64,000 nt of DNA from Amoebidium appalachense. Taxonomy: Eukaryota; Protista; Ichthyosporea. The DNA lies in NCBI GenBank assembly GCA_963693365.1, contig CAVNZM010000014.1, positions 1,488,001-1,552,000 of the forward strand, read 5' to 3'. Below are positions 6,047 to 13,530 of this stretch, piece by piece (the stretch's first letter is position 1; the number at the start of each line of letters is the position of its first letter). The notes beneath the pieces are model-generated. The model did no database searches and had not been told where the DNA came from. It was given only the letters and a program-made list of their open reading frames with translations. The translations under genes and the position numbers were made by a program.

Positions 6047-9000
6047 TCCTCCCGCCAACCCTCCCTCCTCTTCAACCTTCCAACACTACTGCCATGAAAA
6101 TCTTCAGTGGTAAAAGTCATCACGCACTCATACCTGCCCTCCCCCCCCCCCCCCCCCCCCCCCCCCCAACCCCAACCCCAACCCCACCCCCTTCCTTTCC
6201 CCACCCCCTCTTCCTCCCCCCCCCTCCCCCTTCCCCCGCCTCCCAAATACACCCGCCCACCCACCCACCCAAACACCCCCCCACCCCCCTCCACTGCTGC
6301 CCCCAAACACACCCACACCCACACACACACATTCACCCTTCCCCCCCCCTCTGTTGGAGTGCAGACTTACGCTCACTCCACAATATGTGTATGTTAGCTT
6401 TACAATTGGTTCCGTGTACACAGACACACGCTGACACTCGATCACCACATGCACATCTGCATAGTTGAGGAATGTTGCCAATTGTGTTTTGACTGCAAAC
6501 GATTGGTTCACTGGTCCCAGAGATCTCTAAATGAAAGTAACCAATCCGATTAGCACCTGGCATCCGGATTACATTCCAGACTGCTGCCCCACGGGTATAT
6601 AAGCCACGTCTCTGCCAGGTGCAGACATGGAGTTCAGACATGGAGTTCAGTCATGGAGTTAAGTCATGGAGTTAAGTCATGGAGTTCAGTCATGGAGTTA
6701 AGTCATGGAGTTAAGTCATGGAGTTCAGTCATGGAGTTAACACACTGAAAGCAGTAAAAAAACGGGTCAGCGCCCAAGCGCGCCACGACGACCCTAGTCA
6801 CAGCGGACTCTACTTCCAACAGGGTTATGGGCCCCTCACGTAATGATTCCATCAAGTTCAAGGTCGACATCCCTCTCTTCACTGGCATTGATAATGATTC
6901 AGGCACGGACTACCACACATGGGCCGAAACCATGTATGTCCAGCTTTCTGGTGCTGGTCTTCTCCACACCATCGCGCCCAGTACGGAGCACCCGGCTACC
7001 CGTGAACAGGTCGACACTGCCCGTTCCTACCTGTGGCAAGCACTCTCGATTGACGTGCGTTGTATCCTAGGGTTAACACGCACCACCACACCTGCGGAGA
7101 TATGGTCGGCCCTATCTGCCCACTACCTGGAGCAATCTGAGGCCAATCAGTACGACCTTATCGGGCTGTACATGAATTCTACGCCTGAACCTACGGACAC
7201 CGCGACGAAATACGCCATGAAACTCCGCGGCTACGTGCGGCGCCTGGCCGATTACGGCACACAAATTGGTGATGCTCAAGTGCTGACCAAGCTCACCAAC
7301 GACCTCGGCAAGGTGCCTTACTACGAAATGCCTGTAATTGCCTACAAGATGACACCCAAGCCTACCGTGATGGGCCTCCTCCAACAGCTACGGGCATATG
7401 AGACCAGCCACCCACGTGCACGTGTGACTACCAGCTCCGGGCCGGCCGCCTTCACCACACGGGCTCCTCAACCTGTCATCTGCCACGGCTGCGGCAAACC
7501 AGGCCACATCAAGTCTCAGTGCCCCAACGGCAACGGCCAACACAGCAACTCTGGCAACAACCGTGCCAGCACCTACCCCAAGGGTTCCTGCGTCAACCAC
7601 CCACTGTCTACCAGTCACACTACCGCCATGTGCAAGGGGGGCAACCGTGCCAACGGCCGCAAACCTAAGGGTGGTCCCCTCCTGCCTGGGTCCTGCATCA
7701 ACCACCCTGCCTCTACTACCCACACTACGGCACAGTGCAAGGGGGGGCTGCCGCTCCCCGGGCTTTCCTCATGTCTAGCAACGACTGTGGCACCAACAAG
7801 GTGCTCCTCGACTCTGGAGCCACTGACCATGTGTGCCCCCGGCCCGATGTGTTCATCAACATGCGTGCGGCGCCTTACTCCACGGTCCAAGTAGCCGACA
7901 AGGGTGCATGTGCAGTGCTTGGGGTGGGCGACGTGTTCTTTTCCAGCACCATCGACGGCGTTACTGCGGTGCATCAGCTGACGGATGTACTCTACGTGCC
8001 CTCCATCCCCGACACTCTCATCAGTGTGTTCACGGCAACTACCAACGGTGTTTTACCCCGCTTTGACACCCGCGGCGGCGTTAAGTTGTGCTACGGCGAT
8101 CAAATTCTGGCCACCGGCTCGGCTGTCGGCACCAAGCTGTACCACATGGCGGTGTCTCTTCTGCGCGCGGACACAACCCCGGACGCCCAAACCACCACTG
8201 CTCCGCGTATCCTCAAGGTTACTGCCGACCTCAACACGTGGCACTACCGTCTGGGCCATGCTGGCATTGACGCTGTACGCTCGGTCATCAAGTCTGCAGG
8301 CCTGTTGGTGGGTGGCGGTGCCAAGTCTCCGGGTGTGTGTGAGCCCTGTGCCCTCGGCAAAGCCCACCGTGTTGCCTTCTCCGAATCAACTAGCCAAGCT
8401 CCCCGGGTCCTAGCCAAGGTTCACAGCGACATCAGCGGCCCCTTCCCTCCCGCGATCGGTGGTGCTCAGTACTTGGCGACGTTCCACGACGAATTCACCG
8501 GCCACACCACGGCCGTGCCCCTCGTCAAGAAGTCGGACACACTGGCTGCATATGTGACGTACCACAAGGCGGCGGTTACCCAACACGGTGTTCCCATGCA
8601 GGTGTTTCAGTCCGACGGGGGGGCGAGTACATGGGCACGGCCTTCGGGGACTACAACCGTGAGCATGGCATTCGCCATCAGATCACTACCACCGGCTCTC
8701 CTCAACAGAATGGGACTGCCGAACGACTGAACCGGACCCTCCTCGACATGGTTCGGGCACTCCTGCAGCAGTCCGGCCTTCCGGTGGGATTCTGGGCCGA
8801 GGCAGCTGTGACCGCGGCTTTTATACGCAACATGCTCCCGTCGCGAGCCACCGGCAGCCAATCGTCTCCCGCTCTGCTGTGGACCGGCATTCCTCCCGAC
8901 TACAGCCGGCTCCGTGTCTGGGGCTCTCCCTGCTACGTCCATCAACAGGATACACCGAAACTGGCGCCTCGTGCCGTCAAGGGCGTCTTCGTGGGCTACC

Positions 9001-12000: not shown

Positions 12001-13530
12001 GAGCCCAGAAACCGACTTCTAGGCTGTACCCTACACCCGCGAGCGTATTTCCGTGAAGTAGAGACTTTCGCTTCCACAAACTCCATCCGCAGCAGCCTGC
12101 GACATCAACGTCAAGTATTCCACTTCATTGGCGGGGCACGCACCACAGTGGAATGCACACCCCGGTCTACCCTGCAAGCAGCCACACTCACTCTCTCTTC
12201 TCTACAGTGGTGTGTACACTTCTCCAATTGGGTAGGGGTGTTGGAGTGCAGACTTACGCTCACTCCACAATATGTGTATGTTAGCTTTACAATTGGTTCC
12301 GTGTACACAGACACACGCTGACACTCGATCACCACATGCACATCTGCATAGTTGAGGAATGTTGCCAATTGTGTTTTGACTGCAAACGATTGGTTCACTG
12401 GTCCCAGAGATCTCTAAATGAAAGTAACCAATCCGATTAGCACCTGGCATCCGGATTACATTCCAGACTGCTGCCCCACGGGTATATAAGCCACGTCTCT
12501 GCCAGGTGCAGACATGGAGTTCAGACATGGAGTTCAGTCATGGAGTTAAGTCATGGAGTTAAGTCATGGAGTTCAGTCATGGAGTTAAGTCATGGAGTTA
12601 AGTCATGGAGTTCAGTCATGGAGTTAACACACTGAAAGCAGTAAAAAAACGGGTCAGCGCCCAAGCGCGCCACGACGACCCTAGTCACAGCGGACTCTAC
12701 TTCCAACACCCTCCCTCCCCCCCCCCCCCCCCCCCCCCCCTCCCTCCTCCCCCACATACACACGTACACACACGTTGTTATTTTGTATAATTCTACGGGA
12801 CTATACTTATGTCTACGGCAAGCAGAGTGCACAGAGGTGTCATGTAGAAACACGACCAACACAATAATGAGAGGGCAATCGGAGTTGTTGACGATACATG
12901 AAAGATTTTGAAACAACAACTGAAGTTTATTGATCTCTCTCGAGCCCTTTTGTACCGGGCCAAATATTCATCTTATCAAAAATACAGAAAAGGAACCAAT
13001 CAGCTCTTCCGAATGATAGAGAACTACATTCCACCATAGCATACGCTATTCTACCTTCTGACCCAGCAGAAGTCTCAAAACACTACTTAAATAAATTAAG
13101 TAATACAGACAACTTGTCACTATCAATTCAAATATATATTTATACTTGTCTCTATAAAGAAACTCGTCTAAATACATATGTTTCCTAATTATAGATGACA
13201 CTCTTTAGAGAGAAGATATCTTATCTCGAGACACATACCATACAGAAACAAAATGTCCAATCATAACACGTCTATGATTAAACGTACTGAACAGGAATGC
13301 ACAACACAATCTACGAGTGTACTTACTCGCGTCTATTGGTGAGCTATCACTGCTTGAACAAAGGCACAAAGACAACGACTATAGCTAACCAATCACGCTA
13401 CTATTCAGATAAACTGAGGAGAGCAAACAGAAATGGAATACAATAAGTTCTTATCAGGCAAGTGAGCCAGGTGTGCCCAGATCTCAAGATATCTATGCAC
13501 ACAGGAACACGGGAGGGAGAGAGAGAGATA

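Follow-up and report, generated by a model that had tools for sequence, protein, structure and literature searches.

A three-LTR insertion joining a Copia element and a TRIM-like element with unrelated LTRs at the primer-binding site in Amoebidium appalachense

Insertions with three long terminal repeats (LTRs) are known for the Angela, Opie and Squiq retrotransposons, where they have been attributed either to co-packaged RNAs or to recombination of cDNA before integration (PMC1950507; bioRxiv 10.1101/452573). Here we analyze an insertion at positions 6352–12708 of a 64,000-nucleotide stretch of DNA from the ichthyosporean Amoebidium appalachense (contig CAVNZM010000014.1; henceforth the window, in which all coordinates are given). 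It combines two element families, a Copia element with its LTR-B and a non-coding element, the mini, with its LTR-A, in the order LTR-A, Copia body, LTR-B, mini body, LTR-A. As in Angela, Opie and Squiq, there are three LTRs, two bodies, one target-site duplication (TSD) and near-identical outer LTRs, and the internal LTR, two cores, flanking TSD and identical outer LTRs of the Sabot-Schulman model are all present. However, that model involves a switch within homologous R regions, whereas the LTRs here are unrelated and the joins lie at the primer-binding site (PBS); furthermore, Angela, Opie and Squiq complexes join members of the same family through homologous LTR or R sequences, whereas here one of the partners is non-coding.

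The same order of parts is found in tandems of the Tf1 and Tf2 elements (PMC11042837). There, the PBS tail directs joining upstream of the PBS of the other element, and the product consists of the resident LTR, the incoming body, the incoming LTR and the resident body; in the Amoebidium insertion, LTR-B is likewise followed by the PBS and body of the mini, i.e. the incoming 3′ LTR precedes the PBS and body of the other element. The difference is that Tf1 and Tf2 share long homologous segments (reverse transcriptase, integrase and parts of the LTRs), whereas only 20 nt are shared here, and both joins fall within them.

Tandem and chimeric TRIMs (terminal-repeat retrotransposons in miniature) of plants (PMC4717578), including those of sugar beet (PMC13570524) and the pear Cassandra elements (PMC4079214), carry a PBS, a polypurine tract (PPT) and a 5-bp TSD, and often three LTRs; in sugar beet, two TRIM-08 chimeras contain extra LTRs from other TRIM families (PMC13570524). 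These arrays and chimeras combine TRIM with TRIM, whereas the partner here is a full Copia element and the host is an ichthyosporean. Plant tandem LTR retrotransposons are also single insertions with a shared internal LTR and a TSD (PMC11899658), but these are repeats of one element, with LTRs 85–99% identical in the two loci described in detail, and the pipeline used targets highly similar repeats. Three-LTR complexes, tandem TRIMs, TRIM-TRIM chimeras and PBS-directed tandems are known, whereas the join described here appears to be new: no published report was found of a PBS join between an autonomous element and a non-autonomous one whose LTRs are unrelated, subscription papers and supplements (including the details of the sugar beet chimeras) being outside the search. 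Du et al. 2010 are said to have described LTR exchange in soybean between a non-autonomous element and the autonomous one it is paired with (SARE/SNRE); two-LTR recombinants of related LTRs are reported there, not a three-LTR fusion. No completed swap (A-Copia-A) was observed in the present data, which do not include a census of genomic loci. The accessible text of the Amoebidium genome paper contains the word LTR once, in the methods.

A related large element is reported for only 11 of the 289 plant TRIM subfamilies, and TRIM helpers are mostly unassigned because searches rely on shared LTRs (PMC4717578). A fusion at the PBS ties the mini physically to a candidate helper despite the lack of any relationship between their LTRs, and long-read assemblies allow junctions of this kind to be counted. 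The locus also indicates that ~20 nt at the primer site suffice to join two families, which is a possible route of LTR replacement.

Anatomy of the insertion and its parent families

All parts of the insertion lie on the forward strand, between two copies of CCCTC read directly from the letters, one on the left (6347..6351, inside a C-run) and one on the right (12709..12713). The 5′ LTR-A (6352..6821; 470 bp, TG..CA, with nine tandem repeats of 13 nt at 6622–6738) is identical to the 3′ LTR-A (12239..12708) at 470/470 positions; LTR-A is native to the mini, its end being joined to the mini body in assembled contigs of public sequencing runs (seven runs, X1, X6, X10, X11, X17, X18 and X19, of 24 listed). 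Junction 1, from LTR-A to Copia (6815..6834), comprises 20 nt common to both families, i.e. the 7-nt LTR end and a 13-nt PBS. The Copia body (6822..11168; 4347 bp) runs from the PBS through gag, protease, integrase, reverse transcriptase and RNase H, as identified with Pfam, to the PPT, and the segment that includes the Copia PPT and the start of LTR-B (11146..11177) is the same as the mini PPT and the start of LTR-A at 29/32 nt. The internal LTR-B (11169..11933; 765 bp), which is native to Copia, as it is present at both ends of a second copy, has the Copia PPT directly before it and a PBS directly after it. Junction 2, from LTR-B to the mini (11927..11948), comprises the shared 20 nt and the 15-nt PBS of the mini. 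The mini body (11934..12238), with 305 bp between PBS and PPT and stop codons in all six frames, is non-coding and TRIM-like. Both fusion junctions fall without a scar inside the shared LTR-end/PBS stretch. The coordinates, LTR identity and CCCTC duplication given in a preliminary description of the window were confirmed, and the three-LTR structure is real and well defined.

Alignments of the mini core with the Copia body and of LTR-A with LTR-B were no better than those of shuffled sequences (z from −0.6 to 1.7 with three scoring schemes). Homology between LTR-A and LTR-B, of which only the tips match, and an origin of the mini as a deletion derivative of Copia were both rejected on these grounds. 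The exact matches between the two families span the first 9 nt and the last 7 nt of the LTRs and 13 nt of the PBS.

The claims that LTR-B lacks a TSD of its own and that nesting by itself did not produce the structure both hold: no duplication around the internal LTR-B was detected in the insertion, and ordinary integrase nesting alone is excluded. The CCCTC duplication by itself is modest evidence, because both insertions of these families occupy C-runs and, among the 1,610 C-rich sites of the window, 65 have CCCTC as the 5-mer immediately downstream, i.e. a 4% chance match. Better support for a single insertion comes from colinearity of the host gene. The insertion site is the last intron of a short-chain dehydrogenase gene, and the exons are in order on either side: the second-last exon (5461..5676, forward strand) and the last exon (13740..13916, forward strand) match residues 181–250 and 245–308, respectively, of an Amoebidium parasiticum transcript (P0107), both at 92% in tblastn. 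This transcript is the sole match for one exon and is 88–97% identical across most exons. The colinear flanks argue against recombination of two distant insertions and against joining of two loci. Both insertions in the window are in C-runs on the sense strand of the element (6347–6351 and 12709–12713; 55220–55224 and 61109–61113), and a target preference for G/C homopolymers is possible.

The second copy (copy 2; 55225..61108, reverse strand) is an ordinary B-Copia-B element with LTR-B at both ends, as originally described, and its own CCCCC duplication. Its LTRs show 1 difference in 766 positions, its body differs from the fused Copia body in 14 alignment columns, and a small insertion creates a stop codon in RNase H. 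The Pfam domains occur in Copia order (PF14223, PF22936, PF13976, PF13683 and PF07727, with PF25597 also matched), and copy 2 has the gag-protease-integrase-reverse transcriptase-RNase H order of Ty1/Copia elements together with two TG..CA LTRs, a PBS, a PPT and a 5-bp TSD. Both Copia copies of the window are frameshifted; an extra G at 7740 and at 8616 is read in 4/4 public runs, and therefore the polyprotein frame of the family is open. The frameshifts in the window are likely homopolymer slips, and by the criterion of an intact polyprotein frame the B-Copia-B family would count as autonomous. The gag start codon is located inside LTR-B, at 11798, 47 codons upstream of an ATG in the PBS, so that A-Copia is devoid of the native N-terminus of Gag. 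As assembled, LTR-A has no in-frame ATG ahead of the PBS; with the shorter A-run present in X10, X11 and part of X17, an ATG of LTR-A lies 36 codons upstream of the PBS ATG and in frame with it (6719–6827), a resemblance to the gag start in LTR-B that may be due to chance.

A protein search with pol recovered 3 distant loci among 71 candidates, with 29–31% identity, and the Copia matches among longer proteins were at most ~40% identical. In LTR-B of copy 2, ~10 nt (11359–11369) are replaced by a copy of a stretch that lies farther along the LTR; LTR-B of the fused element has the form read by the main X10 contigs. In X17, the start of LTR-B is joined inside the Copia body at two places (7257 and 9876 to 11169; 45x and 39x), either through nested insertions or through autointegration.

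In X6, X10 and X11, the paths A-PBS-mini and mini-PPT-A both close, and their depths are similar, indicating the same LTR at both ends of the mini. At 470 + 305 + 470 = 1245 bp, the mini exceeds the classical TRIM limit (~1 kb, as quoted in PMC13570524), and we denote it TRIM-like because this size suits only the wider use of the term in that paper. There are ~60 copies, a rough figure, and a variant lacking 11975–12058 is represented by a deletion joint in 4/4 runs. A search of Rfam over 6300–12800 produced a single match (E 0.76) below its threshold and no family in the mini body; a retrozyme or hammerhead ribozyme in the LTR was rejected given the lack of an Rfam match above threshold in this range, and so was a structured RNA in the mini body (folding z −0.71, no Rfam family). 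The LTR-A end pattern had 0 matches in metagenome contigs.

Several further observations concern LTR-A in individual runs. Two X10 contigs have other DNA behind the LTR-A end, and the same run contains a diverged A-like LTR at 43x; LTR depth in X10 is more than twice the body depth (3.5 for A/mini and 6.5–7.9 for B/Copia), reflecting many solo LTRs, other bodies or composition bias. In X17, two joints (~120x each) link the end of LTR-A directly to the start of LTR-A (6821–6822 to 12238–12239), as would be seen in head-to-tail dimers or 2-LTR circles.

The PBS of either family is antisense to tRNA-Met(CAU) over its anticodon arm and does not correspond to the 3′ end of the tRNA. The 15-nt PBS word of the mini occurs at 75 loci of viral contigs, 65 of which contain a tRNA-Met(CAU) gene; at six tRNA-Met loci that were rechecked, the match is antisense and spans the anticodon arm, and the Copia PBS agrees with the same tRNA-Met sequence for 13 nt. 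Priming within the anticodon arm of tRNA-Met is known from Drosophila copia and yeast Ty5, which both families resemble in this respect. With viral tRNA-Met genes as stand-ins, the pairing energy of the primer-copied tail over 15 nt is −20.8 kcal/mol with the mini PBS vs −18.3 kcal/mol with the Copia PBS, i.e. the tail pairs 2.5–3 kcal/mol better with the mini.

Parental joins and the fusion junction in public contigs

The A-PBS-mini join is found in all seven runs, as joints in X6 (21x) and X10 (496x), as a split record in X11 (22x), and as loose ends specific to A in X17, X18, X19 and X1. Six of the seven runs contain the B-PBS-Copia join, with none among the X18 records listed. In X6, X10 and X11, both mini-PPT-A and Copia-PPT-B run on without a break; at the parental joints, the 20 letters fit both sides. 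Because the parental joins dominate the public contigs, A-mini-A and B-Copia-B are taken as the normal forms, and the three-LTR form is a minority. Thus, two earlier expectations, namely, that free parents exist and that the three-LTR form is not the normal structure of the family, are borne out at the level of the A-PBS-mini, mini-PPT-A and B-PBS-Copia paths; whole free loci with TSDs lie beyond what such contigs show.

Junction 2 was compared at 100% identity over 48 bases in four runs (X17, X18, X19 and X1), with counts taken from the records listed; 33 further records lie outside that listing. In X17, B-PBS-mini is represented by three 31-mers, each of which can match only with letters of LTR-B at one end and letters foreign to Copia at the other: 11917–11947 (600x), 11918–11948 (550x) and 11926–11956 (650x). 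The first of these is also present in X18, at 550x. These depths correspond to 4–7% of either parent junction in X17 (8750–9000x and 13750–14000x), and are ~70 times the mean of seven stray joints of the same run (8x). After deduction of ~130–190x that belong to another path, described below, and of ~49x of the third word that come from an A variant, the remaining depth is ~360–600x, or 1.6–2.9 single-copy equivalents, where the yardstick is one contig, that of the intron next to the element (225x), and depth is not copy number. X19 and X1 have 2 records each at junction 2, all parental, which does not show absence, given that contigs drop rare variants. Among the 15 joints listed of 31, there is no Copia-PPT-A joint. 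Judged from these contigs, junction 2 has good, albeit incomplete, support as a real and perhaps not unique structure.

Other contigs carry loose ends behind LTR-B. In X18, one contig (176x) contains the LTR-B end, the 15-nt PBS and 8 more letters (window 11918–11948), 7/8 of which agree with the continuation of tRNA-Met genes in six loci; this tail could be plus-strand strong-stop DNA with a copied primer, or PBS homology could have guided an insertion into a tRNA gene. The end of the contig coincides exactly with the limit of the B-specific letters, and LTR-A ends may share the path of the tail. Four X17 contigs have the LTR-B end with 10–13 nt of the PBS, followed by DNA absent from the window (11943–11946), at ~28–59x where depth is derivable; internal deletions of these elements were rejected as the origin of the tails, which had 0, 1 (chance-level) and 0 matches in the window. 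The X18 and X17 contigs indicate that PBS-tailed B ends likely exist and join other DNA. None of the 24 listed runs is recorded as RNA. In X19, which is RNA by guess only, A-mini is at 257x vs 12x for B-Copia, compared to ratios of 1.1–3.5 in the other six runs; this ratio is not used as evidence of expression.

Routes to the fusion

Every workable model places a Copia unit with one LTR-B and a PBS at both ends into the PBS of A-mini-A; the models differ in the acceptor, a co-packaged intermediate or a chromosomal copy. The likeliest route to this fusion of A-mini-A and B-Copia-B at the shared PBS, to which we give roughly even chances, is exchange of plus-strand strong-stop DNA within one particle, a scenario reconstructed from sequence. 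Under this scenario, Gag of this Copia would package the mini RNA, and the same tRNA-Met fragment would prime each RNA, with each making the first jump on itself because the R regions of A and B are unrelated. Each minus strand would yield strong-stop DNA composed of its own LTR and the primer-copied tail; the B strong-stop DNA would anneal to the end of the mini minus strand, and the A strong-stop DNA to that of Copia, producing a two-element circle. Strand displacement would open the circle at A only, resulting in a linear A-Copia-B-mini-A with TG..CA ends, which integrase would insert with a 5-bp duplication, and host repair would seal the nicks at B. Such a reciprocal exchange relies on homology of PBS length, which is how reverse transcription always proceeds, and once one pairing is wrong the other has to follow.

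This scenario is consistent with the location of both junctions in the LTR-end/PBS stretch that is used in the normal second strand transfer, with the identity of the outer LTRs, and with flanks that form one colinear intron. Each body retains its own 3′ LTR, as had been proposed; copy 2 and the paths in the contigs bear this out. The parental joins found in the runs, the depth of the B-PBS-mini words, the X18 tail and the stronger pairing of such a tail with the mini PBS also speak for this scenario. For divergent HIV-1 RNAs, a second transfer between molecules has been inferred, although such events are as a rule uncommon (PMC5651808).

A number of points weigh against exchange within a particle. 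The second transfer is generally intramolecular (PMC5651808), a co-packaged and a chromosomal acceptor would be indistinguishable in the resulting sequence, and it is the chromosomal route that has been demonstrated experimentally, for Tf1 (PMC11042837). The loose LTR-B ends of X17 fit PBS-tailed cDNA entering chromosomes, and the diverged A-like LTR of X10 leaves room for another helper. With respect to the junctions, no contig among the records listed spans junction 2 by 31 letters in both directions; words from the center of junction 2 were found neither among the X17 records listed nor in the X18 records; X17 and X18 are one sample, possibly the source of the window itself; and junction 1 (A-PBS-Copia) was not found among the contig pieces listed, which did not include a narrow junction-1 comparison. 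The reality of the junctions, as asserted in the preliminary description, stands as far as B-PBS-mini words occur in public contigs, and does not extend to a contig that fully bridges them.

It is possible, although we consider it unlikely, that a Copia cDNA with one LTR-B was inserted, independently of integrase and directed by the PBS, into an A-mini-A already resident in this intron. The donor would be an intermediate preceding the second transfer, or a 1-LTR circle, that annealed or crossed over at the PBS, and the TSD and both copies of LTR-A would be those of the resident. A single-stranded PBS tail persists on Tf1 cDNA, which is inserted through Rad52 annealing immediately upstream of resident Tf2 elements; the resulting tandems have one central LTR, and ~4% of wild-type insertions are at Tf2 (PMC11042837); the ~60 mini copies (a rough number) would offer targets, and the X17 contigs in which LTR-B ends with a partial PBS lie on unrelated DNA (~28–59x) are compatible with such insertion. 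However, the upstream switch in Tf1 clones lies in long homology (PMC11042837), whereas here it is confined to exactly 20 nt, with no loss on either side. Because a Tf1-type insertion into a chromosomal PBS gives the same polarity and keeps the resident TSD (PMC11042837), the locus is not yet the direct record of parasite-helper co-packaging that it had been taken to be. Should the insertion prove to be of the Tf1 type, the result would be a smaller one: the pathway would then also cover unrelated families, in an organism closely related to animals.

Rather improbable, in our assessment, is descent from an earlier fusion whose parts are replicated together through a read-through RNA extending from the 5′ A to the 3′ A, in which case the TSD and the identical LTR-A copies would date the last jump, not the fusion. 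The excess of B-PBS-mini words in X17 (1.6–2.9 times the depth of the 225x intron contig) could be explained in this way, and re-transposition of three-LTR TRIMs with a new TSD has been proposed for pear Cassandra (PMC4079214); however, depth does not equal copy number, a lone contig serves as the single-copy yardstick, and independent fusions or single B-mini-A elements would yield the same excess, whereas the transcript would have to pass the end signal of LTR-B, and replacement of LTR-B removes the first 47 codons of Gag. The chances appear to be lower still for re-priming, whereby the mini minus strand, ending in the complement of the PBS, would prime on co-packaged Copia RNA, copy U5-R of B, jump and copy Copia, with an ordinary second transfer placing A at both ends. 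This would be a PBS version of the Sabot-Schulman template switch (model in PMC1950507), with one intermolecular event, no nicks and the same final sequence. It would also imply co-packaging, but if DNA primed on the Copia PBS, the RNA there would become open to RNase H, and the PBS that is needed later would be lost. Furthermore, the Copia PBS is normally occupied by the tRNA. Considered together, re-priming and strong-stop exchange, both of which take place in the particle, make co-packaging somewhat probable.

A misassembly is hardly to be expected, nor is integrase nesting placed exactly at the end of LTR-A and followed by a microhomology deletion of the 5′ LTR-B. No read was seen across the whole element or across junction 1, the TSD is a 4% chance match, and the assembly contains homopolymer slips; on the other hand, the junction-2 words are far above the depth of stray joints, the flanks form a single colinear intron, the parts have just 20 nt to link them, and nesting would take two events exact to the base.

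Beyond the strong-stop exchange, we entertain, as a speculative and doubtful extension, that PBS fusion between Copia and the mini is recurrent, with the better primer match of the mini capturing the strong-stop DNA of the helper, and that A-Copia-B-mini-A is itself mobile. Such a unit could regenerate both parents, priming at the inner PBS could produce the reciprocal B-mini-A-Copia-B, and a deletion across the shared PPT stretch could put the Copia genes between the LTRs of the parasite. If this is the case, unrelated LTRs would be exchangeable between families that share only ~20 nt.

Other features of the window

The host dehydrogenase gene has an in-frame stop codon in exon 2 (3010–3012), where the A. 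parasiticum transcript encodes Cys, which reflects either a pseudogene or an assembly error; a duplication affects the end of the gene's last exon (13967–14026). An open frame of 676 codons with ankyrin repeats (41878–43908, forward strand) had no close relative in our search. A second, unrelated Copia gag open reading frame (125–1066, reverse strand; PF14223, E 5e-25) is divergent from the dehydrogenase gene; it was rejected as part of the present system, having no DNA similarity to it and no such PBS motif. Pieces of a PIF/Harbinger-type DDE transposase (PF13359, PF04827) are located at 21174–22525 on the forward strand.

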